A stretch of 64,000 nt of DNA from an uncultured Candidatus Saccharibacteria bacterium (GCA_964407105.1 CAYOUG010000004.1:6936-70935), one strand, 5' to 3'; shown: positions 3,607 through 62,480, counted from the first letter of the stretch. Program-made: numbers and translations. The notes: generated by a model not told the origin, from the letters alone.

Positions 3607-3659
3607 TGCGTTATATTAACAGAAACTAGCCTTTTTTCCAGTTTAAAATATCTTAGAAA

Positions 3660-5339: not shown

Positions 5340-5344
5340 ACAAA

Positions 5345-7777: not shown

Positions 7778-7865
7778 GGTAAATGTTCGTTATTCTTTTA
7801 TTATTAATCGATAATACTTGCCATTATATAAGATTTTTTGACCCCACTCAACGAACAACTTTTAC

Positions 7866-7895
7866 ACACAAAAACCCGCTTTAGGCGGGTTTTTG
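7866..7895 (-). terminator. Bidirectional intrinsic terminator downstream of rnpB
   Basis: aaaacccgc-tttag-gcgggtttttg; GC stem flanked by A-run and T-run, directly 3' of the rnpB end. Confidence 0.6.
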
Positions 7896-7903
7896 TAATT
7901 TTT

Positions 7904-8248: not shown

Positions 8249-8283
8249 CAATACTATATCACATTTTAAATTTTATTTCAACC

Positions 8284-15777: not shown

Positions 15778-15780
15778 TAA

Positions 15781-18120: not shown

Positions 18121-18122
18121 GA

Positions 18123-19094: not shown

Positions 19095-19103
19095 ACGGTT
19101 AAT

Positions 19104-44275: not shown

Positions 44276-44315
44276 AATCGTTGTAGAAACATTAAACTAG
44301 TATATTATACATAGT

Positions 44316-45740
44316 GTGATTTCAGAAACAAATGCGTGGCTACGACGACATAAAATAGGTGTTGCTATCTTTTTTTTCGCACTGGCCATACGTCTATTTT
44401 TCATTTTATCAGCACCGCCAGAAAAAATTACTACTTTTGCTTTGGGTGCAGATGGTTCAGACTACGCAAACGAAGCTCTAAATATCGTAAATGGACACGG
44501 TTTTAGTAGAAATATTCAGACTCCGTTTTTGCCAGACATGATCCGTACACCCATTTACCCCCTCGTTCTGGCCTTAGTTTATGTGTTATTTAATAGTTTT
44601 TATCCAATACTTTTTTTACAAGCATTATTATCTTCGTGTATTCCGCTTATAGGAATGTCACTTATGAGACTTTTTAGTGATAAAAAAAGTAGTGTACTTG
44701 TGGCTGGTTTAGCTCTTGCAATAGAACCCCACATGGTTTTTTACACGATATTTTTTACATCAGAAACAATATTTGTTCCTTTGTTTTGTATTTTTATTTA
44801 TACGTTTGTTAAATGGATGATAAATCAAAAAATCTCTTATCTAGCTATCGCAAGTATAACGCTTGGCGTCGCAACCCTCACTCGTCCAATTTCTATACTT
44901 ATACCAATACTTTGTATTGGATGTGCTCTCATTTTGTATCAAACACACAAAAACAAAAATATCCTTGTTCACATTGGTATATTTATTTTAATATTTATTG
45001 CCACACTTTCTCCATGGATGATACGAAACAAAATCCAATTTAATACTTTTTCAATTTCAACGGTTGGTTGGTTTAATGTTTATACTCGTTTTACTACAGA
45101 CATAATGGCTACCCACAATAAAACAGATTTTTACACCTCATATCAACGCAATTTAGATATTCTATCCATAAAAGGATACGTAAAACATCCCCCACCCGTA
45201 AGTGAGCTAGAAATACAAAAAGCAGAATTTATGCCGATTTTGAAAAAAGAATCTATTGAAATTATTCAAAGATATCCAAAAGATTTTTTAATTGTATCTA
45301 CCCTTGCTGCACTTTCTGTTTTAACTCAAGACAACACCCTAAACATTCTTGAAACAAATTGGGAAATAAAAAGCAAACGACCCTCACTCTCACCAACACT
45401 TTATTTTGCGCAAAATGGTTTTAAAAAAACATTTTCCTATCTATTACCTTACATACATGGGACATATATAATTCCTTATATAGGAAGAGCCTTGTGGACA
45501 CTCGTATTTATAATGACTATTTACGGATTTTTTGTAATACAACAACATAATAAAGAAAAAAAAATACTCGCAACGTTCTTGTGTTCGATCATTATATACT
45601 TTATTATTTTTACTATTAACGCCAGCCCGCAAATAGATGGTCGTTATAGAACACAGTTTTTTATTTGTGAGCTTGTACTATGTTTGGTGGCTTTTGAACA
45701 TTTAATACAATATACAAAAAAACAAAAGAAAATTTCATGA
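44316..45740 (+). CDS. GT-C superfamily membrane glycosyltransferase (PMT_2/ArnT-like, GT39/GT83-type), paralog of 49336-50745
   Basis: 474 aa, about 11 TM. N-terminal region ...GADGSDYANEALNIVNGHGFS...TPFLPDMIRTPIYPLVLALVY is typical of dolichyl/undecaprenyl-phosphate-sugar dependent GT-C enzymes. Shares the F(L/I)PD..(R/N)TP.YP..LA motif with 49336-50745. Confidence 0.6.
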   Translation: MISETNAWLRRHKIGVAIFFFALAIRLFFILSAPPEKITTFALGADGSDYANEALNIVNGHGFSRNIQTPFLPDMIRTPIYPLVLALVYVLFNSFYPILFLQALLSSCIPLIGMSLMRLFSDKKSSVLVAGLALAIEPHMVFYTIFFTSETIFVPLFCIFIYTFVKWMINQKISYLAIASITLGVATLTRPISILIPILCIGCALILYQTHKNKNILVHIGIFILIFIATLSPWMIRNKIQFNTFSISTVGWFNVYTRFTTDIMATHNKTDFYTSYQRNLDILSIKGYVKHPPPVSELEIQKAEFMPILKKESIEIIQRYPKDFLIVSTLAALSVLTQDNTLNILETNWEIKSKRPSLSPTLYFAQNGFKKTFSYLLPYIHGTYIIPYIGRALWTLVFIMTIYGFFVIQQHNKEKKILATFLCSIIIYFIIFTINASPQIDGRYRTQFFICELVLCLVAFEHLIQYTKKQKKIS

Positions 45741-46444
45741 GTTATCGTACTATTATCGTCATACCGACATACAACGAAAGAGAAAATATTGCTGTTCTGA
45801 TACCGCAAATTTTTGAATATTTACCGAATACAAGAATTTTTGTTGTAGACGATAATTCACCAGACAACACTGCAGAAATGGTATTTTCATTACAAAAACA
45901 ATATCCACTTGTTTCACTCACAAGTCGATCTGAAAAAAATGGCCTTGGTTCAGCATATATTCATTCGTTTAATTTACTTAAAAAGGAAACTGATATTGAC
46001 TGGGTTATTACAATGGATGCCGACGGCTCACATCATCCAAAATATATCGCTGATTTTATTAAAAAATTTGATGAGGCAGATTTGGTTATTGGTTCGAGAT
46101 ATACAAAAGGTGGGGGCATTAAAGATTGGGAGTGGCATAGATATTTACTTAGTTTTTTTGGTAATTTATACGTCAGAACTCTACTAAGATTACCCATTAA
46201 AGATATTACTGCTGGTTATAATTGTTATAAAAAATCAACCCTTGATGAACTAAATTTTGATTTAATCAGAGCAAATGGTTATGCCTTTCAAATCGATATG
46301 AAAACGCATTATTCAAAACAGGGTAAAAATATAGTAGAGGTACCAATTATTTTTACAGGAAGAGTTGGTGGAGAAAGTAAAATTAGTGGTTCTATTATTT
46401 TAGAGGGTCTAAAATACCCCTTTCGATGGTTATGGAAAAAATAA
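45737..46444 (+). CDS. GT2 polyprenyl-phosphate sugar synthase (Dpm1/GtrB-like)
   Basis: 235 aa. IIVIPTYNERENIAVLIPQIF...RIFVVDDNSPDNT...DADGSHHP matches dolichol-phosphate mannose synthase-type GT2. Start overlaps the upstream GT-C gene by 4 nt. Confidence 0.85.
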   Translation: MSYRTIIVIPTYNERENIAVLIPQIFEYLPNTRIFVVDDNSPDNTAEMVFSLQKQYPLVSLTSRSEKNGLGSAYIHSFNLLKKETDIDWVITMDADGSHHPKYIADFIKKFDEADLVIGSRYTKGGGIKDWEWHRYLLSFFGNLYVRTLLRLPIKDITAGYNCYKKSTLDELNFDLIRANGYAFQIDMKTHYSKQGKNIVEVPIIFTGRVGGESKISGSIILEGLKYPFRWLWKK

Positions 46445-47319
46445 TATGCCCTGTTTGTAAAAATGAATCTACGTCACATTTGTTTCAAAAAAATAAATTT
46501 TATGTAAATGTGTGCTCTAAATGTACGTTGGTATTTATTTCAAACCCACCCGCTGACACCGGTATAATTTACGACCAAAGCTATTTTTGGGGCGGATCTA
46601 AAAACGGCGGTTATGTAAACTACGAAGAAGAAAAACAAGCGATGCGTTCGGTTTTTGAAGACTATCTTACACGTATTAATAAATATACCGAGACTGGAAA
46701 CATGCTTGATGTTGGTGCGGCTACAGGCTTTTTTTTACGAGTTGCTAGAGATCGGGGGTGGAATGTTGCTGGTGTAGAAATATCACCACAAGCCTCTGCA
46801 GAAGCGCAAAACAAAGGAATAAAAATGCATACCGGTAGTCTTGAAACTTCTACTTTTCCAAATAGCTATTTTGATTGTATTACAATGTTTGATCTCATAG
46901 AACATGTTACAAACCCTCACGCGGTAATTAAAAAAACTAGTGAAATATTAAAAACAAACGGTTTACTTGTAATTAATACACCAAACATAGGAAGTTTATA
47001 TGCACGCGTACTTGGTAAACAGTGGCATTTGTTATGTCCACCAGAACACTTGATTTTATTTAATAAAAAAAGTATTGAAACACTCCTCACAACATACGGC
47101 TTTAAAATACTTTGGTTTGGTAATATCGGAAAAACATTTACCATTCAATATATTATTCATCAAGCAATTCACTGGATTCCAGCTTTAAAATACTTATTTA
47201 AATTAATACCTTTAGAAAAAACTTTTCTAGGAAAAATTTCTATTCCACTTAATCTTCATGATAATATGTTTTTGATCGCTCAAAAACAAACACTTCCACA
47301 CACGCAAGACGTTCTATAA
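46426..47319 (+). CDS. Class I SAM-dependent methyltransferase with N-terminal Cys4 zinc ribbon
   Basis: 297 aa. CPVCKNES...CSKCTLVF zinc ribbon, LDVGAATGFFLRVARDRGWNVAGVEISPQA (motif I), LKTNGLLVINTPN. Confidence 0.75.
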   Translation: MVMEKIICPVCKNESTSHLFQKNKFYVNVCSKCTLVFISNPPADTGIIYDQSYFWGGSKNGGYVNYEEEKQAMRSVFEDYLTRINKYTETGNMLDVGAATGFFLRVARDRGWNVAGVEISPQASAEAQNKGIKMHTGSLETSTFPNSYFDCITMFDLIEHVTNPHAVIKKTSEILKTNGLLVINTPNIGSLYARVLGKQWHLLCPPEHLILFNKKSIETLLTTYGFKILWFGNIGKTFTIQYIIHQAIHWIPALKYLFKLIPLEKTFLGKISIPLNLHDNMFLIAQKQTLPHTQDVL

Positions 47320-47950
47320 AAGGTATTTTACCAACGACATCATTTATAAAAAATGACACAAGTGGGATATATTTTGGGAAAAGTAATCTCCATTCTCGAC
47401 CAACAAGCTGAAGTCTCTGCTTTTTTGCAATATTAATCAAACTACCGGCCGATATTCTATAATGTGGACCCTCAGGCATTTTCATGTGCAATTTTTCAGC
47501 AACCATTAAAATACCCTCCCACAAAGGATTCGCCATCGAAATAACCACAATACCATTTTCATTCACCGATCGATATAAGCCGGCAAGAATTTTTTCTGGA
47601 TATTGTACGTGTTCTATAACATCAAAAAAAATAACCACATCAAACTGACCAACGTTTATATCAGCTATATCTCCCTTTATAAAATCAATATTTGGTTCAG
47701 TGTGTCTTTTTTTAGCAATTTCTATCATTTCACCAGAAATATCTACCCCCAGACGCTTGGGTACATTTAACGCCTTAAGAATGGTACCCGTACCACAACC
47801 AGCATCAAGTACACTTTTAGCACTCACCGTATAACTACGAGCTATATCTTGAAGATTTTTATAATAAAACCAATTTTTAGATTTCCAATAATCGTAATTT
47901 TTTGCAACCTCATCAAAATGTTCTTCTACTCTTCTTTGTTCCATAAACAT
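47249..47950 (-). CDS. Class I SAM-dependent methyltransferase (Methyltransf_11/UbiE-like)
   Basis: 233 aa. VLDAGCGTGTILKALNVPKRLGVDISGEMIEIAKKR, DVVIFFDVIEHVQYP. The 3' end overlaps the convergent gene 46426-47319 by 71 nt. Confidence 0.8.
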   Translation of the reverse strand: MFMEQRRVEEHFDEVAKNYDYWKSKNWFYYKNLQDIARSYTVSAKSVLDAGCGTGTILKALNVPKRLGVDISGEMIEIAKKRHTEPNIDFIKGDIADINVGQFDVVIFFDVIEHVQYPEKILAGLYRSVNENGIVVISMANPLWEGILMVAEKLHMKMPEGPHYRISAGSLINIAKKQRLQLVGREWRLLFPKYIPLVSFFINDVVGKIPFIERLACVEVFVFERSKTYYHED

Positions 47951-47952
47951 TT

Positions 47953-49308
47953 TTATTGAATAAATTTTATTTTTTTAGCAGCAAAAACACACATCTGTAA
48001 CAACAACCATCCGTGACGAAAACGTTGAATTTGAGTTGTACCATAAACCCTGTCTTTATATCTAATTGGCAAATCAACAATTTTTAAATTAAGTTTTGAC
48101 GCACCAAACAACAAATCAAAATCACCAAACGGATCGAAGTCGCCAAAATATTTTCTACCTTCTTTTACGTGTTCATAATTTTTACGCGTCAAAACTTTTG
48201 TACCACAAAGCGTATCTTTTATTTTTTGAGACAATAACCAAGAAAACATGCTAGCAAAAAATTTGTTACCCAGAATGTTTAAAAAACGCATAGCTTGCGC
48301 CTCCATTTCATATACAAGACGTGAACCGTTTACAAAATCAGCACGACCAGACACAATTGTATTGTAAAATTTTGGCAATTCTTCTGGAGGTACGGTCATA
48401 TCAGCATCCAAAATCATCAGTATGTCCATTGTAGCCATAGAAAAGCCCTTTCGAACCGCATCCCCCTTTCCCTTTCCTTCTTGTTGAGCAAATAATATTT
48501 TATGAGTTGAGGCGTGCAATTTTGCTACCCTCTGTATTTCTTCCCACGTTCCATCAGATGAATGTCCTTCTATAAAAATGAGTTCTGTTGCTACACCCAT
48601 GTTTGGTGTGCGTTTTACAATTGATTCAATATTTCCCTTCTCATTACGAGCAGGAACGATAACAGAAACACCCAGTTCTTTTCTTTCAGCTTTTGGTATT
48701 TGTCGTGCAACAATATATTGTGTTATACAAAAAAGAGAAAAAAATGGTAGTTGAGAAACATAACGATTAAGAAAATTTGAAATAAGTGGAATATAAATAG
48801 GACAAATCATTCTTTTGCCTTTTTTTACCACCTCCAAATCAGCAAGATACAACAAATTTTCAACATCACTCACTGAAAGCCAATTTTGCACCTGTTGTAT
48901 TTCTTTTAAACCAATTTTTTCTGCCAAAGAAAAAATTGGTTGCCAAAGATGGTTGTGAAATGTAATAACCAAACGACTCTCTTTATGCATCATTTGATGC
49001 ATATTTTTAAAAGATGTTTCTATATCATGAAGTGTGTTTATTACATCAACACACAAAACATAATCAAACAGATCTTTTAACGACGTCTTTTCTATATTAT
49101 CTTTAAAAAATTTTATTGACGGATAAGATTTCTTTGCTTTTGCAACAAAAGAGGCGTTTGAATCAATACCAACCTTATTTTGGGTTTGAAGTGTATATAA
49201 TAAATCACCGCTACCACACCCAACATCAAGCACAGATGCATGTGTTGGAACCAAAAATGATAAGAGTTTTATTTTATCAGTATGATAATAGTGGTGTAAT
49301 TTGAGCAT
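47953..49308 (-). CDS. Bifunctional fusion: N-terminal SAM methyltransferase plus C-terminal GT2 glycosyltransferase
   Basis: 451 aa. VLDVGCGSGDLLYTL (methyltransferase motif I) in the N-terminal 200 aa. VSVIVPARNEKGNIESIV...ILDADMTVPPEELPKF (GT2 DxD region) in the C-terminal half. Confidence 0.75.
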   Translation of the reverse strand: MLKLHHYYHTDKIKLLSFLVPTHASVLDVGCGSGDLLYTLQTQNKVGIDSNASFVAKAKKSYPSIKFFKDNIEKTSLKDLFDYVLCVDVINTLHDIETSFKNMHQMMHKESRLVITFHNHLWQPIFSLAEKIGLKEIQQVQNWLSVSDVENLLYLADLEVVKKGKRMICPIYIPLISNFLNRYVSQLPFFSLFCITQYIVARQIPKAERKELGVSVIVPARNEKGNIESIVKRTPNMGVATELIFIEGHSSDGTWEEIQRVAKLHASTHKILFAQQEGKGKGDAVRKGFSMATMDILMILDADMTVPPEELPKFYNTIVSGRADFVNGSRLVYEMEAQAMRFLNILGNKFFASMFSWLLSQKIKDTLCGTKVLTRKNYEHVKEGRKYFGDFDPFGDFDLLFGASKLNLKIVDLPIRYKDRVYGTTQIQRFRHGWLLLQMCVFAAKKIKFIQ

Positions 49309-49335
49309 TGTAATTTATTAATAAATGCTCAATTA

Positions 49336-50745
49336 CTATACACGATTTTCTCTTACCAACAAAGAACGAATAAATTTAAACGATTTTTTATCATACAAAG
49401 CAAACAGTGTATAAATAGCCATAGGAAAAAGAAATAGAGTAATTGGTACTCTATAGCGAGCCTGCGCCACCGGACCAGTAATTAATCCGAAATATAGTAT
49501 TGATAAAATAGAAAACGTAAAAACCAAAAAAAGTAAACGCGAATCACGTTTATACCAAACAAAAAAAGGAGCGAAAATGGCACACAAATTAACAATAATC
49601 CAAAATAAAAATCCAAACAAAAACAACAAACCATTTAGTGGATCTGAATATAAATATTTTATTACACCAGAAACATCACCCCGAAATAAAAGCAAACTAA
49701 TATTTGGTAATGGTTTTGTAGAAATTCGCAATTCTCTCAAAAGCAAACGATATCCATCAGAAAAGAAAAGTGTTGCAAAAGAAACCGCGTGCATTTTTGC
49801 ATATAAAATCGGATCTTTTCCTATTATCTCAAATGTTTTTTGGGTAAGATATTTACCATAAAAAACATTTTTCAAATCATCTTTTTGTTGTACTTCAGGA
49901 TTATCTTTTTTGGCCTGATCTATAAGCATTCTCTCAGCCTCGCTTGCAAGTATACCTTTTTTGTAAACCAGAAACTGCCCGGCATCATAAAAATATAATG
50001 TGTACGCACCCTTAGTGGTAAGACTAAAACTATTAAAATGAATATAATTTCTAAAAGACCAACCACCCACCACAGAATACAGAGCCAAAAAACAAACAAG
50101 TGTGTACACAAAAAAATTCTTTTTTTGTTTTATCCAGAAATAAACACCATATGTAATGAAAAAGAGTGGTAAAAAGTAAAGTGTAACTGGTCGTATGATT
50201 GTTGCAATACTTAGTAAAAATCCAGCAAATAAAACATATCTTAAATTAAAAACAAAAAAAGAACGAACGAAAAAATATAATCCAGAAATAAAAAAAACAA
50301 GAAACATTGCCTCCGAAAGAACTGTATTTGATGTATAAACATTCCATGGTTCAACAGCAAACAAAATTGTAGAAACAAAAGAAACACGTTCAGAAAATAA
50401 ATAACTAAGGGTGCGATAAAATAAAACTGTAACAAAAGAAAGTAATACAATCTGTATTAAAATTGATAAAAATGCAGTATTAAACGGTATAGCGGTAATA
50501 GCAAGATAAAATGGATAACCCGGAGTGTTTAGGGCGTCTGGAATAAAAGGTGCTTCTGTTGCATCAGAAAAAATTTGTTCATGAACAATATTTCCAGCCA
50601 AACGCATATATCCCCAAGAATCATCTGTAGAGAAAAAACCATGCGTACCAAACATCATGTATATGGGAATAAAAAGTAGAATTTTAACCACCAACGCAAT
50701 AGTAAAAATTCTTTTTTCAACCTTGCTTAACGACACAAATTTCAT
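49336..50745 (-). CDS. GT-C superfamily membrane glycosyltransferase (PMT_2/ArnT-like), paralog of 44316-45740
   Basis: 469 aa, about 11 TM. ...STDDSWGYMRLAGNIVHEQIFSDATEAPFIPDALNTPGYPFYLAITAIP mirrors the N-terminal loop of 44316-45740. Confidence 0.6.
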   Translation of the reverse strand: MKFVSLSKVEKRIFTIALVVKILLFIPIYMMFGTHGFFSTDDSWGYMRLAGNIVHEQIFSDATEAPFIPDALNTPGYPFYLAITAIPFNTAFLSILIQIVLLSFVTVLFYRTLSYLFSERVSFVSTILFAVEPWNVYTSNTVLSEAMFLVFFISGLYFFVRSFFVFNLRYVLFAGFLLSIATIIRPVTLYFLPLFFITYGVYFWIKQKKNFFVYTLVCFLALYSVVGGWSFRNYIHFNSFSLTTKGAYTLYFYDAGQFLVYKKGILASEAERMLIDQAKKDNPEVQQKDDLKNVFYGKYLTQKTFEIIGKDPILYAKMHAVSFATLFFSDGYRLLLRELRISTKPLPNISLLLFRGDVSGVIKYLYSDPLNGLLFLFGFLFWIIVNLCAIFAPFFVWYKRDSRLLFLVFTFSILSILYFGLITGPVAQARYRVPITLFLFPMAIYTLFALYDKKSFKFIRSLLVRENRV

Positions 50746-52094
50746 GTTTGTTTTTTAAAATATTTTATTACAGAACCGACAATAAGCTCATCGTTTTCAT
50801 CATACGAAACAAGATCGCGTGCCTTAATATGAAATTCTGGTAGTCGATTTTTAATCACACGATACCTTTCAAACACAAAAATAACTGGATTTAAAACATA
50901 TTCGATAGCAATACCAAAAACACCAAAAAATGATATTCCCAACGGCAAAAGCACAACTACAGAAATAAATTTAAGAATGTTGGAAAAAAACAAATTTTTC
51001 TGAGCTTTGAGAGCGTAAAAGATTGGAGTAAAAACACTTGCTATGCTAAGCGGTATTAACGCCGGAAGTAAAGCACGGAAAAGTGGTACGGCTTCTTCAT
51101 ACTTTGGAAACAAGAAAATAATAAGTTGTGGCAATATCGCATAAGACAGTGCCAAAACAATTAGAGAATTTATAATTTGGTATTTTAAAGTTTTTTCAAT
51201 CAAAGTATAAAACTTATCTCGATATGAAATATATTGTGGAATAATTGGTGTGATAATTGACGTTAGTGGAAACAGTGAAAGTGTGTGAGAAAATAAACCG
51301 GAAGCAAGAGCAAAAAGTGCAACCGTCTCTGTACCGAGAAACATTTTTATGATAAATACTCTAGCGTTTTGAGTAAGTGTACCAAGATATGTTGAGAAAA
51401 TCCCCCATTTTCCATGATGTTTTAAAAGATGCCAACATGATGTATAAGAATTTGTTGGTGCATAAGAAAACAATCTATAAACACCCAGAAAAACAGGCAA
51501 CATAATCGTTAGTGCAATAAATTGAGACAATACTGCGGAAAGAGCAACACCATGCATTCTAAAATCAAAAATATAAAGAAATAAAATTATACAAAAGAGA
51601 CGACTGGCTTCTTCGGTAATTGTATAAAGTGCTTGAGAAGAAAACTTAAAATACACAGCATATATTGTCATCATACTTGATCTAATTGGTGATGTTAGAA
51701 AAATGAAAGACATTATTTTAAATAAAATACTTATGTGTGTATTGTAATAATACGCCAACAAATTTGAACCAAAAAAAACACACAAAAAAGCGCAAAAACC
51801 CAAAATAACCTGAAGTGAAAAAAATTGTTTAAAAATAACATGCACCTGTTCTATATTTCCCTCGCCTCTTTTAACCCCCATATCTGCAACGACCGTATTT
51901 CCAAAACCCGGTAATAAAAAAATATTAAACAAGGCTACGCCTGTAAGTGTAAGTTCCACAACGCCATATTCATAAAGTGTAAGTTTGTGAAGTACTAAAA
52001 AAACACTACATAAACCTATAATTTTTAATACAAAAACACTTGAGATCGACCACACTGCACCATTTCTCACTGTGTGTACAAAAGTTTTAGACAT
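50742..52094 (-). CDS. Wzx-like oligosaccharide flippase (polysaccharide biosynthesis protein, MOP superfamily)
   Basis: 450 aa, 12-14 TM. N-terminus TVRNGAVWSISSVFVLKIIGLCSVFLVLHKLTLYEYGVVELTLTGVALFNIF is typical of Wzx/PST-family flippases. Confidence 0.72.
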   Translation of the reverse strand: MSKTFVHTVRNGAVWSISSVFVLKIIGLCSVFLVLHKLTLYEYGVVELTLTGVALFNIFLLPGFGNTVVADMGVKRGEGNIEQVHVIFKQFFSLQVILGFCAFLCVFFGSNLLAYYYNTHISILFKIMSFIFLTSPIRSSMMTIYAVYFKFSSQALYTITEEASRLFCIILFLYIFDFRMHGVALSAVLSQFIALTIMLPVFLGVYRLFSYAPTNSYTSCWHLLKHHGKWGIFSTYLGTLTQNARVFIIKMFLGTETVALFALASGLFSHTLSLFPLTSIITPIIPQYISYRDKFYTLIEKTLKYQIINSLIVLALSYAILPQLIIFLFPKYEEAVPLFRALLPALIPLSIASVFTPIFYALKAQKNLFFSNILKFISVVVLLPLGISFFGVFGIAIEYVLNPVIFVFERYRVIKNRLPEFHIKARDLVSYDENDELIVGSVIKYFKKQT

Positions 52095-53268: not shown

Positions 53269-53307
53269 TATCTCATAAAAATGATAAAAATCCTAACAGA
53301 AAATTTC

Positions 53308-53745
53308 TTATAAAATTGTTTCCGACACCGTTTTAAATATAAAAAATTTGTAAATAAAAAAACTTACTATCGCCAAAACACCACTAATCAAAATCTGTGA
53401 CAACATATAGTGTAAATAAAAATGATCTACGAGAATATAAAGAGCGATTGTATTAATAACAAGGTTTACGAGACCCAAACAAAAATGGAGAATCATTTGA
53501 ATATGAATATTGTGTCTTGACATATCACGAAACGTCCAAAATTTTTGAAGAACAAAACTAGCAAAAAAAGCGACCATATACGCAATAATGGCTGAAAAAA
53601 TATACCAAACATAAATATACTCAACCAAAATATGAAGAAGAAGTAAATCTAAAAAAGCAGCAGTTCCACCCGACACTAAAAAACGAAATACTTTTTTATA
53701 CTTATCACTATGATTGTCTAAATGTCGGTTGATAAAATTAATCAT
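53308..53745 (-). CDS. GtrA-family membrane protein
   Basis: 145 aa, 4 TM. FRFLVSGGTAAFLDLLLLHILVEYI...AYMVAFFASFVLQKFWTFRD matches the GtrA signature. Confidence 0.8.
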   Translation of the reverse strand: MINFINRHLDNHSDKYKKVFRFLVSGGTAAFLDLLLLHILVEYIYVWYIFSAIIAYMVAFFASFVLQKFWTFRDMSRHNIHIQMILHFCLGLVNLVINTIALYILVDHFYLHYMLSQILISGVLAIVSFFIYKFFIFKTVSETIL

Positions 53746-53748
53746 ATT

Positions 53749-54786
53749 TTAAGATTGTGGCTTGTATCTAGATAAGGTTTCATTATTAAATACTTCTTTA
53801 ATAAAAGCTGGCATGAATAAATATTTTTCAAATATAATTCTAGCTTTTTTTTGTCGATCTTCATATTCATTAGATGACCAATTTTTATATAGGTTAACAA
53901 TAGTATCTGTTATCGATCGGATATTTTTATAATCAATGCGAATTATAATATCATCATAAGGAATTTTATCTTCAAGCGGCAATACCATATCAGTATCAAC
54001 AAGGATCGGTATTCTGCTCATAGAAAGAGTTTCATAAAATCTAAGTGAGTAGTTGCCATCCCCTTTTGGCGCAAGAGTAAAATCATTTTCTTGCATATTG
54101 TGTATATATTCTTTACGAGCCAAAACCGGATCAAGAGTAATGCTTTTTTTGTTGCCAGAGTACGACGACCGAGTAATAAAATTAGATTTTATTCTATGAT
54201 CACCAGACAAAATCCTCATAGCTTCCCTACGAAAATACAAACCATCTTTCAAAGGACCTCGTTTTAATATTGTGTTTTTATATAAAAAACGTAAGTGATG
54301 CTGAAAATTTTCAAAATCAGCCTTACCCACAAAACCCACAGAAGGCGTAGCGGTTTTTTCTTTTAATGATATTCCGTACAACACACCAAGATCTTCCACA
54401 AAGGCCGGCATAATAATTTCGTTTAAAGCTAAGGTTTTTTTGTATTGAGAGGGTCTAAAAATGATTGTGTTTGGAATATCTATTTTTTCTGCACCATCTT
54501 GATAAGCGAAAAGTAAAAGAGTTTTCGAGTATTTTTTTGATAGATCAACACACCTCTCTAAATACGATGGCTCTCTTTTAAGTCGTGCGTACATATGAGG
54601 AATTAAAAAATAATCTGCATCTGTGGGGTTATCTACGATAGTAAAAATATCTTTATAAGAAGTGGGGTCAATATTCTGAAAAAGATTGTTGGTAACACGT
54701 TCACCAAAAACAAAATCCAAAATAGGAATCCACGAAACATTTGGTAACAATGGGGTGCAGTAAACCTTAAGAATGTTTTTTTGCAT
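53749..54786 (-). CDS. Exostosin-like (GT47-type) putative glycosyltransferase
   Basis: 345 aa. FTLAPKGDGNYSLRFYETLSMSRIPILVDTDMVLP resembles the exostosin C-terminal motif (f.l.prG.g..s.Rl.Eal..GcIPVi). Tentative. Confidence 0.45.
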   Translation of the reverse strand: MQKNILKVYCTPLLPNVSWIPILDFVFGERVTNNLFQNIDPTSYKDIFTIVDNPTDADYFLIPHMYARLKREPSYLERCVDLSKKYSKTLLLFAYQDGAEKIDIPNTIIFRPSQYKKTLALNEIIMPAFVEDLGVLYGISLKEKTATPSVGFVGKADFENFQHHLRFLYKNTILKRGPLKDGLYFRREAMRILSGDHRIKSNFITRSSYSGNKKSITLDPVLARKEYIHNMQENDFTLAPKGDGNYSLRFYETLSMSRIPILVDTDMVLPLEDKIPYDDIIIRIDYKNIRSITDTIVNLYKNWSSNEYEDRQKKARIIFEKYLFMPAFIKEVFNNETLSRYKPQS

Positions 54787-55405
54787 AAAAAGTATATCCT
54801 AGTGGGTAGCGATCGATTATCTTCGGCCTTAATTTCAAAAATAATTTGTTCAGAAAAAAATAAGGAATAAACAATATTGGTCTAAAAAAGTTTGGAACAG
54901 AAAGCATGAGATTGTTGTAATTTACATAAAAAGCACTGCTACCCACTGTTTGTATTTTTATATTATCAAAACCGGCCTCAGAAAAAATCTTATAAAGAGT
55001 TTCACTAGTATATCTAAAGTAGTCATGTGGATCTGGATGATAATTTATCATGAATGGCACGAAGCCAATTAGCACACCAGATGGTTTTAATATTCTATTT
55101 ATTTCTCCCAATAAAAATCGATAGTTAAAAATATGCTCGAGAACGTTACATAAAACAACCGTGTCTATTGAATTATCAAAAAATGGCAGTGGATCTTTCT
55201 CAAAATCTATAGGCATAATAGATCCATCTACCGGAGTTATAAGAGAAACTTTCTTAGTATCAAAATATGAAAAATAATCCGGTTTACGACCCCCACCAAC
55301 ATCTACAACGTGTCCAAAAAGTTCAAATTTTTTAAAAGAAAAATTCATTAAAACACGCGCCAAACTTTGTCCCAATATTATTTTTTTAATAATTTCTAAA
55401 AACAT
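54767..55405 (-). CDS. Class I SAM-dependent methyltransferase
   Basis: 212 aa. GHVVDVGGGRKPDYF...VVLCNVLEHIFNYRFLLGEINRILKPSGVLI. Confidence 0.7.
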   Translation of the reverse strand: MFLEIIKKIILGQSLARVLMNFSFKKFELFGHVVDVGGGRKPDYFSYFDTKKVSLITPVDGSIMPIDFEKDPLPFFDNSIDTVVLCNVLEHIFNYRFLLGEINRILKPSGVLIGFVPFMINYHPDPHDYFRYTSETLYKIFSEAGFDNIKIQTVGSSAFYVNYNNLMLSVPNFFRPILFIPYFFLNKLFLKLRPKIIDRYPLGYTFYAKKHS

Positions 55406-56016
55406 TTTTTTTCAAGCACAAAAAAATGATGATACTGATTTTCAAAAGGAATAAAATGCTTTTTAACTAACATTTGTTTTGATAATTTTTCTAAAATTAA
55501 TGATAATTTATAACCACTCTTACCAACTTCCCAATAATGCTGACCGTTAAAAATATGTTTTTTATAAAATGGTATTTTAAATGCAAAACGTATTTCTGAT
55601 AAAAAAGGAATTTTGATACTAAACTTTATTGGTGGACCGAAATGTGGAATACTAATAATTACATGTTTTTTTGATACTCTTTTCATTTCTTCAATACATT
55701 TTTCAAGTTTTTCAAAAGGAAGATGTTCAAGTACTTCAAATGCACACACCACATCGAAGGAATTTTCCGGAACAGGAATAGATTCAACCGAACCAAGTAT
55801 GTCTGGGTGTAAATCATCAGCAATATCAATATTTTTATAATCTATAGAGGTATTGTTTTGTATATATTGTTTTATTACCCCATCCCCAACACCAACCTCA
55901 AGAATAGAGGATGGGCTACACTCTGTGAGGGTGTGAAGTTGATAATAATAACTAGCCCAGCGATCTGGGTAACAGTATTTTTCAAATTTATAATGTTCTT
56001 TATCTACTTGTTTCAT
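55396..56016 (-). CDS. Class I SAM-dependent methyltransferase
   Basis: 206 aa. ILEVGVGDGVIKQYI...DVVCAFEVLEHLPFEKLEKCIEEMKRVSKKHVIISIP. Confidence 0.7.
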   Translation of the reverse strand: MKQVDKEHYKFEKYCYPDRWASYYYQLHTLTECSPSSILEVGVGDGVIKQYIQNNTSIDYKNIDIADDLHPDILGSVESIPVPENSFDVVCAFEVLEHLPFEKLEKCIEEMKRVSKKHVIISIPHFGPPIKFSIKIPFLSEIRFAFKIPFYKKHIFNGQHYWEVGKSGYKLSLILEKLSKQMLVKKHFIPFENQYHHFFVLEKKCF

Positions 56017-57053
56017 ATCAGATTTATAATATTTTCAACAAGATTAGAGAGTGAATGATTTTGTACAACAATATTTCTTAATTTTAATGATATTTGTTGC
56101 ATATTATTTTGATTCTCAAACAGGTTTTTTATAATTTCTGAAATTTTTACTAAATCTATCCCATCAACAAATAAACCAAACGGTAAAAGCATATTTTTAA
56201 AAGCTTCATTTGATGTAACTACAACATTACCACAAGCCATAGCCTCAAGAACAGCTTTATCTAAACTTCCAGTATTACTCATGTTTATAAAAATATCCTG
56301 TTGAGAAATATACTCTGGGATATCGTCGTGTTTAATTTCTCCCACAAATACCACTTCGTTATTTAAATAATGCTCAGAAACAATCTCTTTCAACGTATTT
56401 AAATAATCACTGTCTTTTTCTGTTACTGGTCCACCCACAATTTTTAAAAAAACCAACATTCCAGATTTCTTCAAAAGATCAACCACTTCAATAATGCGGT
56501 GATGATTTTTAATTTTTGCTATACGTCCCACAGTTACAAGTCTTAATGTATCGGAAATATTTTTTGTGTGTGGAATAAAAACATCAGTATCAATACCATG
56601 ACCCATAACGTGTAACTTTTTACTTTTGAGTCTAAAGCTTTCTTTTGAAGCACTAAAAATTACGTTAGAAATTTTCTCAGCAATTCTAAGTTTTATATCT
56701 ACATGTTTATGTGTGTACCATAAAGATATTTTTTTACACCAAATTTTCCAAAAAAATCCACCCAATATTACATAAACAGGATTCATGTGTACAAAAACAC
56801 AATCATATTCTTTTCTTAATTTAAAAATATACAAATAAAACCTAAAAATATAGGTAAACCGCGAGACACCAAACTCTTTACCGAGAGAGAAAACTCGCAC
56901 ATTTTCAGGCAAATTATAATCCCCTTTTTCTAAACAAATAACAGTTACCTTGTCACACTTTCGAGCAAACTCTTCTATCCATCTATGAAAAAACCCCAAG
57001 ATGCTATCTTGGCGATTTACTTTTTGTGTAATTATTAGAATATTTTTTTTCAT
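56013..57053 (-). CDS. GT4 family glycosyltransferase
   Basis: 346 aa. LRLVTVGRIAKIKNHHRII...LEAMACGNVVVTSNEA. Confidence 0.8.
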   Translation of the reverse strand: MKKNILIITQKVNRQDSILGFFHRWIEEFARKCDKVTVICLEKGDYNLPENVRVFSLGKEFGVSRFTYIFRFYLYIFKLRKEYDCVFVHMNPVYVILGGFFWKIWCKKISLWYTHKHVDIKLRIAEKISNVIFSASKESFRLKSKKLHVMGHGIDTDVFIPHTKNISDTLRLVTVGRIAKIKNHHRIIEVVDLLKKSGMLVFLKIVGGPVTEKDSDYLNTLKEIVSEHYLNNEVVFVGEIKHDDIPEYISQQDIFINMSNTGSLDKAVLEAMACGNVVVTSNEAFKNMLLPFGLFVDGIDLVKISEIIKNLFENQNNMQQISLKLRNIVVQNHSLSNLVENIINLI

Positions 57054-57063
57054 AAATATTCGC

Positions 57064-58311
57064 CTATTTCTTTACCAAAAAATCATTTGCTGAATTTATT
57101 GAGGTTTTATATTCTTCAAGATAAACTGATTTTGATTGAAATGTTACTTTAGCCAAACGCAACATCGCTTCTTCAGCAAAAGTTTCTCGAAGCGCATTAT
57201 TTTCAATACAAAGTTTTATTTTTTCATATAAACAATAGTCATCTCCCACCGGACAAACAAACACGTCACCATCTGACAGAACATCACGAGCAATACCTAC
57301 GTCGGTAGCAATCGTTGGACAATGAGAAGCGAGCGCTTCAACGATAGTCATTCCATATCCCTCGTAGTTTGAGGTAACCAAAAAAAGATGTGCTGTTTTG
57401 TAGTAAGAAATAAGATCTTGTTGCCACGACTCAAACATAACATTTTTAGAAAGTCCTAAATTTTTCACTTCTTTTTTTAGTGAAAATTCTTCTCTACCGC
57501 TTCCCGCAATCACTAAACCCACACCGGGATATTGGGTGATGATACGACCGAGAGCCTTTAGTGCCAATGAAATATTTTTTTCTTTTGTAAGACGAGAAGC
57601 CACAAGCACAATAAATTTAAATTGTGGATATTTTTTCTTAAGATCAAAAGTAATTGGTGTTTGCTTTATTTTTTCAATATCAACAAAAATTGGTAAAACT
57701 TTTGGATCAACATGGATCAAATTTGTTTTTAAAAGACTTGTTTTTATTCTTTCTGAAACAACACGTACTGCATCTGCAAAAGGAAGTACTTTTTTAGCAA
57801 TACGAACACGAAACATATTAAAAAAACTTTCTTTTTTAAAAAATGGACTCAAAAAATCTGTGTGAATTTGAATGTGAAGAGCAATGTTCGTTTTTTTCTT
57901 AAGTCGCATACCAACGAGACCGCAACCAAAAGGATCCTCACAGGTCACAATAATATTATTGAGATTTTGATTTATTTTCTTATAAATATCGAAAGCTGTC
58001 TTTGTTGCATCTCTAACATACAAAAAACGTGAAAATGAATTTGTTGGATAAATCCACATATTTGGTGAAATTTTTTCTGGTTTGTATTTAGAAGATAGTT
58101 TTGTAAAAACAACAATATGCATTTCTTCAAAAAGCGCACCGTATTCCAAAATACGCGCCCGCACTACGCTTTCTTTATCAAATAAATTTCTATCTGTTCC
58201 AATACTTATGATTTTCATATGCTTATTGTATACGAGAATAGAGTGCAAGAAATTCACGAGCAATGTCTTCTGTGGTATGAACAAAAGAAAATGTTTGCGC
58301 GCGATCTGCAT
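57064..58311 (-). CDS. GT4 family glycosyltransferase (likely true start at the internal MKIISIG near 58218)
   Basis: FIVLVASRLTKEKNISLALKAL...GLVIAGSGREE...TSNYEGYGMTIVEALASHCPTIATDVGIARDVL. The tabulated 5' extension overlaps the upstream gene by 89 nt and is probably not translated. Confidence 0.8.
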   Translation of the reverse strand: MQIARKHFLLFIPQKTLLVNFLHSILVYNKHMKIISIGTDRNLFDKESVVRARILEYGALFEEMHIVVFTKLSSKYKPEKISPNMWIYPTNSFSRFLYVRDATKTAFDIYKKINQNLNNIIVTCEDPFGCGLVGMRLKKKTNIALHIQIHTDFLSPFFKKESFFNMFRVRIAKKVLPFADAVRVVSERIKTSLLKTNLIHVDPKVLPIFVDIEKIKQTPITFDLKKKYPQFKFIVLVASRLTKEKNISLALKALGRIITQYPGVGLVIAGSGREEFSLKKEVKNLGLSKNVMFESWQQDLISYYKTAHLFLVTSNYEGYGMTIVEALASHCPTIATDVGIARDVLSDGDVFVCPVGDDYCLYEKIKLCIENNALRETFAEEAMLRLAKVTFQSKSVYLEEYKTSINSANDFLVKK

Positions 58312-59257
58312 AAATTTTATAAATTTCTGGCTCGGCCATATTAAGTATTTTTTGTTCTATATCTTTTTGATCAAGCGGATCAATATAAAGTACCGTATCA
58401 TTTAAACGATCTTTGATACCGTTCTCTTTTGTCACGATACACGGTTTGCCAAAACCAATAGCTTCAAGTACAACGTTTGGACTCACATCAGAAAGCGATG
58501 GCAAAATAAAAGCATAACACTGGGCAATACGCGAATAAAGCTCTTCTTTTGAAACACCCGAAACAAGAGAAAGCTCAAGTGACGAATCTTTCTTTTGTGC
58601 CTCAGTAAACGCTTTTTTAAGACGTACTATATTTTTCAGCGTAATATCTCGCCCAGCCCAAAGATAAATCTTCTTTAGATTTTGTTCATTTTTAAAATTA
58701 CTATCAAGTGTTTTTTCATTTGATATTTTGTATTCATTTTCAATCACCACATTTTTTTCTGGATTAAGTCCATACGCTTTTGTCCAAATATCTTTTTGCC
58801 ATGATGTACTAAAAACACACACAGAAGAATTTTCAAGTGTAAAACGTGTGATAAGAAAAATTAATTTTTCTTTTAAATTAAGTTTTTTATAAAATGTTTT
58901 GTAAAAATCAGAAAGCGTCACATCTTCATGTGTACGCTCTACATATGATTCCCACAAAAAATCTCCGCCGATACGCAAAATATTTTTTTTACCAAATAGA
59001 CGCGAAGCCATCATCGATGGCCAACCCACAGAAAAAGTATCAAGTGCAATCACAAAATCAACACCAAAAAGACTAAAACACGTTCTAAGAAAAAAATAAA
59101 TATGACGAACAATCGGTGGTAATTTGCGTTCAAAACCATAAGTAAGGACCCTTACCGTATGTCCCTGTCTCCTAAACTCATTTTCAAGCCCCAGAGCATA
59201 GTAGGCCGGACCACCTATAGCTGGAGGATAAATGCCTGTACATATGAGTATCTTCAT
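58223..59257 (-). CDS. GT4-like glycosyltransferase
   Basis: 344 aa. MKILICTGIYPPAIGGPAYYALGL (GT4 N-terminal domain), ...FILPSLSDVSPNVVLEAIGFGKPCIVTKENG (C-terminal motif). Confidence 0.7.
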   Translation of the reverse strand: MKILICTGIYPPAIGGPAYYALGLENEFRRQGHTVRVLTYGFERKLPPIVRHIYFFLRTCFSLFGVDFVIALDTFSVGWPSMMASRLFGKKNILRIGGDFLWESYVERTHEDVTLSDFYKTFYKKLNLKEKLIFLITRFTLENSSVCVFSTSWQKDIWTKAYGLNPEKNVVIENEYKISNEKTLDSNFKNEQNLKKIYLWAGRDITLKNIVRLKKAFTEAQKKDSSLELSLVSGVSKEELYSRIAQCYAFILPSLSDVSPNVVLEAIGFGKPCIVTKENGIKDRLNDTVLYIDPLDQKDIEQKILNMAEPEIYKIYADRAQTFSFVHTTEDIAREFLALYSRIQ

Positions 59258-59330
59258 ACCCCTTACCCTAGCAAATTTTGGCTTTATTTTAAAGGAAAAA
59301 AGAAATAAAAAAAATACGACTTCTTTTATA

Positions 59331-60533
59331 CTAAAAAGTCTTAAAGATCTGAGAATTCATAGCAGAGGCAATATCTTTCCAATCATAACGCAAAACCACC
59401 ATTTTTAATGCATTTTTTATAATATTATTTCTCAATAATTCATCATCAATGAGTTTGTTTACACACATTGCGATACTTTCAGAATCATTCACTTTACAAA
59501 ATAGACCCGTCTCTTTATCAACAAGAAAATCTGGTATTCCACCCACAGGCGTAGCAATCACAGGAATACTAGAAGCCATTGCTTCAATAAAAGAATTACC
59601 CATACCTTCAGAAAGTGATGGTCGAATAAAAATATCAGAAATTTTTAGGTATCGAGGAATATCTTTATAATCCACAAAGCCTTGAAATATCACTCTTTTT
59701 TCTACACCAAGTTCGTGTGCGAGTTTTTTAAGTTCCGACTCAAGCTCACCCACACCAAGAATTAAAAATTTTACGCGATCAGAAAGAAGTGGTAATGATT
59801 TTATTACATCAGCCAAGCCGTTTTTTATCACAAGGCGTGACGTGGTCACCAAAAATATATCATTTGTTTCCTTATGAAGATTCCAACGCAACACACCGAG
59901 TTCTTGTTCACCATAACTACGTGTGAAAAGAGATATATCAACACCGTTTGGTATCACAAAAATATCTTTTTTGTGACCCATACTTTTACCAAAATCTGCT
60001 AGGTATGAAGATATTGCTTGCACCACATCAGCTTTTTTAAAAATTTGCTTAAAAATTGGATAAAAAATACCAACCCTTCTACGAATATGACTTATTGGAT
60101 CACCTTCTTGAAGAGTGAGTATAAAAGGCACATCTGGTTTTCGCCATTTAAAAAACAAAGCAGCAAAACCAGCATACGCTGCCATAATAGACCACGTAGC
60201 ATCAAAACGATATTTTTTATGTAAACGTAGTGCCTTAAAAAAACCAAAAAAAGGAAAAAGTGTTTTATTTATTTGGTGAAGTGTTGAGGAAAAATTTGAT
60301 ACAGTTTTTTTTCTATTCCATAAACCAATCCTATGTACATGCACATTACCCACCTTTTCATATTTAAGTAAATCTTTATGTGCACGCAAAGTAACCATAT
60401 GAAATTCAATATCAGACGGACTGATACGATCGGTGATTTCTTTCACAGCTACCTCTGCGCCCCCTATGTATCGAGGATAATATACAGTTGAAAATATAAG
60501 GATTTTTTTCATGTATACGCGTATTATGCACAC
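59331..60533 (-). CDS. GT4 family glycosyltransferase (likely start at MKKILIF near 60512)
   Basis: FLILGVGELESELKKLAHELGVEKRVIFQGFVDYKDIPRYLKISDIFIRPSLSEGMGNSFIEAMASSIPVIATPVGGIPDFL. Confidence 0.8.
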   Translation of the reverse strand: MCIIRVYMKKILIFSTVYYPRYIGGAEVAVKEITDRISPSDIEFHMVTLRAHKDLLKYEKVGNVHVHRIGLWNRKKTVSNFSSTLHQINKTLFPFFGFFKALRLHKKYRFDATWSIMAAYAGFAALFFKWRKPDVPFILTLQEGDPISHIRRRVGIFYPIFKQIFKKADVVQAISSYLADFGKSMGHKKDIFVIPNGVDISLFTRSYGEQELGVLRWNLHKETNDIFLVTTSRLVIKNGLADVIKSLPLLSDRVKFLILGVGELESELKKLAHELGVEKRVIFQGFVDYKDIPRYLKISDIFIRPSLSEGMGNSFIEAMASSIPVIATPVGGIPDFLVDKETGLFCKVNDSESIAMCVNKLIDDELLRNNIIKNALKMVVLRYDWKDIASAMNSQIFKTF

Positions 60534-60575
60534 ATCTGTACACTATCGCAACAAAACACAAACGATCAAAAATGT

Positions 60576-62459: not shown

Positions 62460-62480
62460 TCATTATACCACACGAATTAT

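Follow-up and report, generated by a model that had tools for sequence, protein, structure and literature searches.

A predicted hypervariable surface-glycan locus with two methyltransferase-linked GT-C modules in a Patescibacteria genome

In the Arn pathway, a GT2 synthase (ArnC), a cytoplasmic tailoring enzyme (ArnD, which acts on undecaprenyl phosphate [Und-P]-linked Ara4FN), a small EamA/SMR-type flippase (ArnE/F) and a GT-C membrane glycosyltransferase (ArnT) act in that order. Three-component systems, such as GtrA/GtrB/Gtr* of Shigella and Salmonella, GacI-L of Streptococcus, CsbB/GtcA/YfhO and the pentofuranose systems (Kelly et al. 2024, PMC11127046), encode a GT2 synthase, a small flippase and a GT-C together, beside a Wzx-type glycan pathway, and in the pentofuranose systems the sugar is also modified on its lipid carrier, Und-P-Ribf being epimerised to Und-P-Xylf before transfer by the GT-C (PMC11127046). 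Here we analysed a 64,000-nucleotide stretch of DNA titled as an uncultured Candidatus Saccharibacteria bacterium (the window; GCA_964407105.1 CAYOUG010000004.1:6936-70935), in which an array of sugar genes contains two GT-C genes, GT-C1 and GT-C2, among genes for predicted lipid-sugar synthases and S-adenosylmethionine (SAM) methyltransferases. We judge it probable, with modest confidence, that this array is a surface-glycan locus combining a Wzx-dependent glycan with two Gtr/Arn-like modules that would place pre-methylated sugars outside the membrane.

A first-pass annotation of this DNA had described a protein-glycosylation island at 44316-60533, and every open reading frame (ORF) it named is present with the claimed domain (Table 1). 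All 16 ORFs of that interval carry glycan-related domains according to the ORF listing and Pfam scans (covering window ORFs of ≥120 amino acids [aa] in 1-40000 and ≥100 aa in 40000-64000), but the sugar genes continue unbroken to the left as far as 31645, well beyond the proposed boundary. GT-C1 and GT-C2 are true, distant paralogs, as had been proposed (27% identity over 411 aa, E = 2e-26), with about 11 and nine hydrophobic segments, respectively; the expected PMT_2 match exceeded the Pfam gathering score for GT-C1 but not for GT-C2. The annotation's heading, which listed seven methyltransferases plus a methyltransferase::GT2 fusion, counted one too many: inside the interval there are the fusion and four free methyltransferases, and the six further enzymes of its text are reached only in the wider region, with those at 39466-40242 and 41289-42143. 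Where a single Dpm1-like synthase had been named there are two, the second being the GT2 domain carried by the fusion.

By sequence, these are two predicted polyprenyl-phosphate sugar synthases, and each has its own GT-C and methyltransferase partners. The best solved relative of the free GT2 (235 aa) was the dolichyl-phosphate mannose synthase (DPMS) of Pyrococcus furiosus (5mlz, E = 2.1e-32, residues 3 to 232), followed by ArnC, and the protein has the Dpm1-type motif MDADGSHHPKY. The GT2 half of the fusion likewise matched DPMS (5mlz, E = 3.5e-16) and then ArnC, and DPMS was also the first glycosyltransferase fold match of the AlphaFold2 model of the fusion (9ep0, 29% identity; pLDDT 72, and <50 in the C-terminal third, so that domain orientation was not interpreted). 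The best NCBIfam matches of both GT2s were AglJ, dolichyl-phosphate (Dol-P) hexose transferase and PpgS, all below the cut-offs. Because the synthases are Dpm1-like, the transferred sugar is probably a hexose. As for the methyltransferases, MT23_b, beside the free GT2, has an N-terminal CxxC...CxxC motif, and its weak relatives in the PDB include the sugar C-methyltransferase TcaB9; five related contigs (L001, L002, L004, L013 and L015) have MT_c next to the fusion gene, at 50-53% identity.

The triad of GT-C1, GT2 and Zn-ribbon methyltransferase genes, which overlap in the window, recurs on the metagenomic contigs L001 to L003 and L005. Together with the triad, the set of fusion, MT_c, GT-C2, Wzx, GT4, GT47, TagF-like protein, CMP synthetase, NeuB and Wzy_C-TPR genes recurs across L001 to L005 at 36-56% identity. 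Since the same gene set and order are found on independent contigs at this level of amino-acid identity, the clustering is not due to chance. The triad (44316-47319) is the sole plus-strand block in a minus-strand array, with its neighbour 40 bp away on one side and a 71-bp convergent overlap on the other; as it is co-oriented with its neighbours in L001 and L002, it has been inverted in place in the window. A search for inverted repeats flanking it found only short AT-rich chance pairs.

Gene fusions tie the same components together. An orthologue of the Zn-ribbon methyltransferase is joined directly to the C terminus of GT-C1, after the last membrane helix, in L007, L008 and L012, and GT-C1::methyltransferase fusions are found in five further 50%-identity clusters of the family (P0152, P0154, P0157, P0159 and P0198). 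Other GT-C1 relatives are fused to GT2 (P0268), a CE4 deacetylase (P0180), GtrA (P0004 and P0155) or GT4 (GT-C::GT4 in P0279 and GT4::GT-C in P0292, with a GT4::GT-C::GT4 form as well), a GT-C2-type relative is fused to GT4 in L004, and a Dpm1-like GT2 is fused to GT4 in L008. Genes for EamA-like proteins with four transmembrane segments (4-TM) take the place equivalent to that of gtrA in relatives. Because the C-terminal fusion partners use SAM or nucleotide sugars, the GT-C C terminus and the methyltransferase should be cytoplasmic and the active-site loop should face outward, with which the positive residues at both GT-C termini agree. A cytoplasmic methyltransferase could thus not reach a GT-C product made outside.

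The methyltransferase::GT2 fusion of the window belongs to a large family (at least 8,000 matches, the best 120 at 53-67% identity), with at least 587 relatives in metagenomes at a GC content of 0.22-0.72. On Moranbacteria-like contigs and groundwater contigs of the candidate phyla radiation (CPR), the operon order is fusion, methyltransferase, small EamA-like protein, GT-C, which follows the scheme of ArnC, ArnE/F and ArnT. A fusion of the reverse order (GT2 then methyltransferase, about 506 aa) lies beside another PMT_2 GT-C on Moranbacteria-like contigs (L013, at 12088-13608, and L036, L055, L064 and L084), and because of this second type the pairing of synthase and methyltransferase may have arisen more than once. 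The GT-C1 family profile recovered 515 representatives at E ≤ 1e-30; an exact-sequence look-up of GT-C1 itself returned no record. Its relatives are metagenomic, from genomes titled Saccharibacteria, Uhrbacteria, Sungbacteria and Patescibacteria plus three Gammaproteobacteria bins. These three bins (L007, L008 and L009, two of them with GT-C::methyltransferase fusions; titled "uncultured Gammaproteobacteria") have a GC content of 0.52-0.57, and one member of the methyltransferase::GT2 family is named Deltaproteobacteria. Either the Gammaproteobacteria-titled bins are mislabelled or the module reaches beyond the CPR.

The locus varies among close relatives. L098 (SecA 75% identical) has the same flanks, a DUF87/TrwB-like ATPase (62%) on one side and Wzy_C-TPR (51%), MurB and SecA on the other, and between them (1124-8418) only orthologues of GT4_5, GT4_4, GT4_3, GT4_2 and MT_e at 37-67% identity, the GT4s in the same order at 37-58% and MT_e at 67%. 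A counterpart of window positions 33920-55405 (about 21.5 kb) is absent from it; this segment includes both GT-C modules, Wzx, GtrA, the nonulosonate genes and the transketolase (Tkt), aldehyde dehydrogenase (Aldedh) and short-chain dehydrogenase (SDR) genes. MT_e and the four GT4s (56013-60533), which adjoin the DUF87 ATPase flank, form the conserved core, and the methyltransferase at 54767-55405 falls in the variable part. L097 (SecA 79%; 1-8393) differs in arrangement from both the window and L098: next to its Wzy_C-TPR (57%) are Wzx, a PhyH-like protein, a TagF-like protein (33%), CMP synthetase (49%), a methyltransferase and NeuB (47%). Thus, Wzy_C-TPR is 51-57% identical and in the same place beside MurB and SecA in L097 and L098, and the adjoining glycan genes differ. 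Because the flanks and the Wzy_C-family gene are conserved and the glycan genes between them diverge, the region is, on sequence comparison, the variable middle of an O-antigen/capsule-type hypervariable surface-glycan locus anchored by the Wzy_C-TPR gene. Conservation of the Wzy_C-family protein while the glycan genes change is as expected of a ligase of relaxed specificity. A site of this style suggests that hosts, phages or competitors exert selective pressure on the surface glycan.

Tkt, Aldedh and SDR were considered as plain housekeeping neighbours, and this was rejected because they are absent at the site in both L097 and L098; the GT-C module of the Saccharibacteria contig L005 likewise has Tkt and Aldedh as flanking genes (1-2698; Tkt 55% identical). 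Rather than serving central metabolism, these enzymes may make or tailor an unusual substituent, either a sugar or an acyl group. Elsewhere in the window, beside MurJ, an 810-aa protein (5345-7777, minus strand) with about 12 membrane segments, C-terminal TPRs and no Pfam match in its membrane part is a second Wzy_C-like/TPR paralog (19% identity to Wzy_C-TPR over 532 aa, E = 2e-8).

The nonulosonate genes supply a candidate for the end of the exported glycan. In NCBIfam, NeuB scored 328.7 bits with NeuB_NnaB (cut-off, 399.65) and 254 with PseI (cut-off, 340), and the cytidylyltransferase scored 134 bits with PseF, under the cut-off of 205.7. The TagF-like protein matched the BFO_1060 family (60.4 bits, model positions 42-363 of 365, under the cut-off of 200). 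BFO_1060 is a strain homologue of the Tannerella transferases Tanf_01245/TFUB4_00887, shown genetically to handle pseudaminic/legionaminic acid (Pse/Leg) derivatives, which members of this family add to a protein O-glycan (PMC5420450). We therefore name the TagF-like protein as a candidate nonulosonic-acid transferase on the strength of this match. Its gene adjoins the cytidylyltransferase gene in the window, L001, L002 and L008, and because it is always found beside the CMP-nonulosonate synthetase, the glycan is likely to carry a nonulosonic acid at its end. In the window, Pfam scans found no precursor genes of the NeuC, PseB/C or Leg type (dehydratase, aminotransferase or NeuC/PseG type).

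In the reading that we favour, cytoplasmic GT4, GT47-like and TagF-like transferases would assemble an oligosaccharide on a polyprenyl carrier, probably ending in a CMP-activated nonulosonic acid; Wzx would move it across the membrane, and Wzy_C-TPR would polymerise it or ligate it to the final acceptor. Two side branches would join this pathway, module 1 being GT-C1, the Dpm1-like GT2 and the Zn-ribbon methyltransferase (44316-47319) and module 2 GT-C2, the methyltransferase::Dpm1-like GT2 fusion and the free MT_c (47249-50745). Each GT2 would load polyprenyl phosphate with one sugar, putatively a hexose; the attached or adjacent methyltransferase would act at the cytoplasmic face, methylating either the lipid-linked sugar or the nucleotide sugar from which it is made; GtrA, or a small EamA-type protein in relatives, would flip the lipid-linked sugar; and the GT-C would pass the pre-methylated sugar to an acceptor outside the membrane. 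The side-branch modules are the best-supported part of this mechanism. The data show the domain identities, the paralogy, the conserved synteny, the fusions and the variability of the locus; when methylation occurs, which sugars are used and what accepts them are what we infer. In our judgement an exported glycan is more likely to be the acceptor than bare protein; the GT-C modules belong to a locus with Wzx and Wzy_C, and L098 does without them at this site.

Several points weigh against this mechanism. The epimerisation of Und-P-Ribf and the action of ArnD are precedents for tailoring on the carrier, but we found none in the literature for a methylated polyprenyl-phosphate sugar donor. The role proposed for each member of the locus was read from its sequence, its modelled fold and its neighbours, all NCBIfam equivalog matches are under cut-off, and the PMT_2 score of GT-C2 is under the gathering score. 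The fusions prove association, not that a lipid-linked sugar is the methyl acceptor, and the methyltransferases could act instead on a nucleotide sugar or an Und-PP-linked oligosaccharide. A census of 80 metagenomic fusion loci, in which a GT-C-like ORF was found within three genes of the fusion in 23 of 52, used our own ORF caller and a hydropathy threshold, which is crude, especially above 55% GC, and gives a lower bound. Finally, no Bac_transf (WbaP) or MraY/WecA-type priming domain was found in the window ORFs or in the gene tables of L001 to L004, so that the main pathway is without a priming enzyme (phosphoglycosyl transferase) at the locus. Such an enzyme may be encoded elsewhere, as is WecA in enterobacteria.

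The AlphaFold2 model of GT-C1 (pLDDT 89.6) matched PglB (E = 4e-6), AglB and STT3 in Foldseek at E ≤ 0.001 (range, 4e-6 to 7e-4) and, more weakly, ArnT (E = 2e-3, TM-score 0.41), PIG-U, Pmt, ALG9 and PimE; every match down to E of about 0.5 was a GT-C-type membrane protein. Because all TM-scores were ≤0.5 (0.45-0.5 to oligosaccharyltransferases), GT-C1 fits no characterised GT-C class. With the family profile run against all PDB sequences, the only match at E ≤ 1 was a spurious one to a phage protein, and no solved PMT, ArnT or other GT-C was recovered; as this search was empty, GT-C1 has no sequence-level placement among PMT, ArnT, Emb or oligosaccharyltransferases. In its first outer loop, D46 and D49 (GADGSDY) do not vary among 14 family members, and GT-C2 has DD at the aligned position. 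The outer loop at residues 243-385 (about 140 aa) bears the family-specific invariant motifs GWFNVYTR, HPPPVSExEIQ and TQDNT, and the chain ends right behind the last membrane helix.

The first-pass annotation had called the system O-mannosylation-like and had proposed Ser/Thr-rich fibre and surface proteins encoded upstream as its targets. In that case, PMT-like GT-Cs would attach (methyl-)hexoses from polyprenyl phosphate directly to Ser/Thr-rich surface proteins such as the 2,497-aa fibre or the small secreted proteins at 17356-19808, which we regard as unlikely. A Dpm1-type synthase beside a GT-C does recall the Ppm1/Pmt pairing, secreted proteins with 25-30% Ser plus Thr (window median, 12%) do exist in the window, and three relatives of GT-C1 (P0154, P0005 and P0019) match the Pfam PMT family PF02366. 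Pilin-like genes adjoin the module in L015, and pilin-glycosylating GT-Cs with lipid-phosphate donors are known, e.g., TfpW (bioRxiv 10.1101/2020.04.19.049825). The window GT-Cs themselves, however, match only the catch-all PMT_2 (PF13231) at E ≤ 0.01, with no match to PMT (PF02366), PMT_4TMC or MIR in either. The 243-385 loop is predicted to be all-helical, not a beta-trefoil, and the fold matches to Pmt4 and Pmt1-Pmt2 (E = 0.06-0.15 over 264-300 columns) ranked under those to PglB, AglB, STT3 and ArnT. The O-mannosylation label is thus unsupported, although the logic behind it, a lipid-phosphate-sugar synthase followed by a flippase and an outer-face GT-C with heavy methylation, stands; by fold, GT-C1 does not clearly group with the ArnT-type or arabinan transferases that had been set against the proposal either. 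The fibre as a target is likewise unsupported. It lies about 16 kb from the nearest gene of the sugar array and about 28 kb from 44316-60533, across housekeeping genes including gatB, obg, secA and murB, and the suggested co-occurrence with the array was not seen, no fibre homologue lying within 10 kb of it in 12 related loci. Moreover, the modules are missing at the locus in L098, and L097 keeps homologues of the small Ser/Thr-rich and WxL-interacting proteins (59-62%) with no GT-C in the 10 kb shown, where the locus ends at Wzx.

A related possibility, that methyltransferases fused to Dpm1/AglJ-like synthases or GT-Cs methylate the sugar on its polyprenyl-monophosphate carrier and that the GT-Cs then transfer it to Ser/Thr-rich surface proteins or pilins in CPR and other uncultivated bacteria, seems to us distinctly improbable. 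Protein glycosylation more generally may still occur: the Wzy_C family includes O-oligosaccharyltransferases, and the TagF-like protein is similar to a transferase of a protein O-glycan pathway.

An Agl-like pathway modelled on Haloferax AglJ/AglG/AglI/AglE/AglP, in which the GT2s prime on polyprenyl monophosphate, GT4s extend the chain, methyltransferases modify the lipid-linked oligosaccharide, Wzx moves it across the membrane and the GT-Cs serve as oligosaccharyltransferases, we hold to be very unlikely. It would account for the lack of a phosphoglycosyl transferase in the window locus and related loci, although a priming enzyme may be encoded elsewhere. It agrees with PglB, AglB and STT3 as the best fold matches of GT-C1, but the TM-scores to these stay within 0.45-0.5 and GT-C1 is without the C-terminal outer domain of oligosaccharyltransferases. 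AglJ is the best NCBIfam match of both GT2s and Agl23 that of GT-C1, yet the scores are far under the cut-offs (61 and 112 bits against 325 for AglJ; 28.5 against 126 for Agl23). The GT2::GT4 fusion in L008 and the GT4 fusions to GT-Cs in L004, P0292 and P0279 would tie chain-extending GT4s to the synthase and GT-C, as this pathway requires, but the conserved anchor of the locus is a Wzy_C-family protein, and this family uses diphosphate-linked donors in known systems.

Equally low is the credence we give to a teichoic-acid-like pathway, with a TagF-like polymerase of a polyol- or sugar-phosphate chain, GT-C/GT2/GtrA decoration outside and methylation of a cytoplasmic precursor, for which the Glyphos_transf match, the TuaC (teichuronic acid) family as the best NCBIfam match of GT4_1 (68 bits against a cut-off of 550) and the supposed monoderm nature of CPR cells can be cited. 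The decoration would resemble that of lipoteichoic acid by CsbB/GtcA/YfhO, and three-component glycosylation of teichoic acids is established (PMC7389260), but the Glyphos_transf match is weak and surpassed by that to the BFO_1060 nonulosonate-transferase family, the TagF-like gene is always beside CMP-nonulosonate synthetase and NeuB rather than CDP-glycerol or CDP-ribitol genes, and Pfam scans of the window found no TagD/TarI/TarJ and no TagGH-type ABC exporter.

Table 1. Features of the window (GA, Pfam gathering score)
Feature	Coordinates	Strand	Evidence or remark
tRNA-Phe and tRNA-Arg(CCT)	245-320 and 771-843	-	
RNase P RNA, bacterial class A	7902-8246	-	108.5 bits, slightly over gathering score 100
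Gly- and Ser/Thr-rich surface protein (fibre), 2,497 aa	8284-15777	-	C-terminal Peptidase_S74 chaperone-like, 16.8 bits, below GA 22
Two paralogous small secreted proteins, Ser/Thr 27% and 30%	17356-18120 and 19104-19808	-	
Wzy_C (O-antigen ligase/polymerase family) membrane protein with C-terminal TPR repeats	31645-33843	-	Wzy_C 81.5 bits plus TPRs; about 10 hydrophobic segments
Transketolase-like	33920-35815	-	Pfam
Aldehyde dehydrogenase	35827-37479	-	Pfam
Short-chain dehydrogenase (SDR)	37448-38254	-	Pfam
NeuB-family nonulosonic-acid synthase	38278-39426	-	NeuB 266.7 bits plus SAF (Pfam)
Class I SAM methyltransferase	39466-40242	-	Methyltransf_11 87.8 bits
CE4 polysaccharide deacetylase	40239-41276	-	Polysacc_deac_1 83.5 bits
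FkbM-type methyltransferase	41289-42143	-	Methyltransf_21 80.7 bits
CMP-nonulosonate (PseF/NeuA-like) cytidylyltransferase	42146-42880	-	CTP_transf_3 87.2 bits
TagF/TagB-like GT-B protein	42890-44275	-	Glyphos_transf 36.7 bits
GT-C1, membrane glycosyltransferase, module 1	44316-45740	+	PMT_2 44.1 bits, GA 26.1
Dpm1-like GT2, module 1	45737-46444	+	GT2 99.3 bits
Zn-ribbon SAM methyltransferase MT23_b, module 1	46426-47319	+	Methyltransf_23 102.8 bits
Free methyltransferase MT_c, module 2	47249-47950	-	Methyltransf_23/11/31, 67-69 bits
Methyltransferase::Dpm1-like GT2 fusion, module 2	47953-49308	-	Methyltransferase residues 6-162, GT2 residues 215-344
GT-C2, module 2	49336-50745	-	PMT_2 24.7 bits, below GA 26.1
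Wzx-type flippase	50742-52094	-	Polysacc_synt 30.9 bits (GA 28.2); nine or more hydrophobic segments
GT4	52087-53268	-	Glycos_transf_1 83.8 bits
GtrA-family small 4-TM protein	53308-53745	-	GtrA_DPMS_TM 72.7 bits
GT47/exostosin-like protein	53749-54786	-	Exostosin_GT47 45.5 bits
Methyltransferase	54767-55405	-	Pfam; in variable segment
Methyltransferase MT_e	55396-56016	-	Pfam; conserved core
Four GT4	56013-57053, 57064-58311, 58223-59257, 59331-60533	-	Glycos_transf_1 42-139 bits
DUF87/TrwB/VirD4-like ATPase and secreted DUF4015 putative glycoside hydrolase	60576-63692	-	DUF4015 298 bits; right flank

SecA of the window shares 79% identity with proteins of "Candidatus Paceibacterota" and about 69% with those of Kaiserbacteria, Lloydbacteria and other Parcubacteria, and we therefore assign the genome to the CPR (Patescibacteria). 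LepA, MurJ, RNase P RNA, GatB, Obg, SecA and MurB, present together with two tRNAs, mark the window as cellular chromosome, predicted from its sequence to be that of a Paceibacterota/Parcubacteria bacterium; a phage origin, which the "S74 fibre" had prompted us to consider, was rejected because of the same genes. The GC content is 0.43-0.46 at 10001-16000, the region of the fibre gene, and 0.31-0.39 elsewhere in the window, with the glycan island at the low end (0.31-0.34). A promoter and terminator scan of 43500-61000 gave site counts below, or no higher than, those in shuffled sequences and was therefore uninformative. The 89-nucleotide overlap of two GT4 ORFs in Table 1 is an artefact of the mechanical choice of the first ATG; an internal MKIISIGTD start (at about 58218) and the length of its L098 orthologue (380 aa) suggest 57064-58218 as the real extent of the gene, in which case the overlap disappears. 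In the fibre, GDRNK replaces the catalytic Ser-x-x-x-x-Lys motif, so that self-cleavage may have been lost. The two small secreted paralogs share GGVTGGTS, IKASSSPA and KFKDNGSNTCN and flank a WxL-interacting-protein-like gene (18123-19094), which, like 19104-19808, is conserved at 59-62% beside gatB in L097; the 17356-19808 cluster looks like a Gram-positive-type WxL surface complex.

CPR bacteria (Patescibacteria) spend their lives attached to other microbes, and hardly anything has been learnt about the chemistry of their surfaces. We found no described CPR glycan locus in the literature, and a recent pilus study called the glycosylation of Saccharibacteria "unexplored" (PMC11623550). The analysis points to a widespread, tightly conserved family of methyltransferase::Dpm1-like synthases that would work with GT-C enzymes, and the fusion pattern makes the testable prediction that the sugars are already methylated when they are exported, the methyl group being added on the lipid carrier or earlier. 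If so, a new tailoring step would be added to the three-component paradigm, and thousands of proteins annotated only as "bifunctional methyltransferase/glycosyltransferase" would gain a function. A methylated polyprenyl-phosphate sugar would be a donor type not previously described, and direct transfer of pre-methylated sugars to proteins, if true, would be a bacterial counterpart of the Dol-P-based protein glycosylation of eukaryotes and archaea.

Compared with known systems, the locus shares with O-antigen and capsule loci and Wzy_C ligases (WaaL, PglL, PilO and WsaB) the conserved flanks around variable glycosyltransferases, Wzx and a Wzy_C protein, but its Wzy_C protein has a long C-terminal TPR region, the locus has neither a priming transferase nor a chain-length regulator, and an outer membrane is probably lacking. 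Protein O-glycosylation in Tannerella forsythia (PMC5420450) similarly has a TagB-like transferase by CMP-nonulosonate genes and a methyltransferase nearby, whereas here the BFO_1060 score is 60 against a cut-off of 200, neither S-layer genes nor a glycosylation motif of the Bacteroidota type were found, and nonulosonate precursor genes are absent from the window. The actinobacterial Ppm1/Pmt and eukaryotic Dpm1/PMT systems have in common with it a Dpm1-type synthase (MDADGSHHP) and a PMT_2-matching GT-C, but in the window PF02366, PMT_4TMC and MIR are missing, the fold likeness to Pmt1/2/4 is partial and weak, and the setting is a variable locus of polysaccharide type. The likeness to the Arn pathway extends to ArnC as the second-best solved relative of both GT2s, the small EamA-like gene in operons of relatives and the CE4 (ArnD-type) domain of one GT-C1 relative (P0180); the differences are methylation instead of deformylation, no lipid A pathway (Pfam scans of window ORFs found no lipid A genes), a weak ArnT fold match and probably a hexose as the sugar. 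From the three-component systems the locus differs in having two modules in one locus, GT-Cs without a sequence match to any solved GT-C, a CPR host, and a SAM methyltransferase for each module, which is either joined to the synthase, as in the window, or carried on the cytoplasmic GT-C C terminus, as in relatives; no described system with such a dedicated fused methyltransferase was found in the literature. It is, then, a familiar kind of system in an unfamiliar host, and what is new is the wiring of methyltransferases to the synthase and the GT-C.

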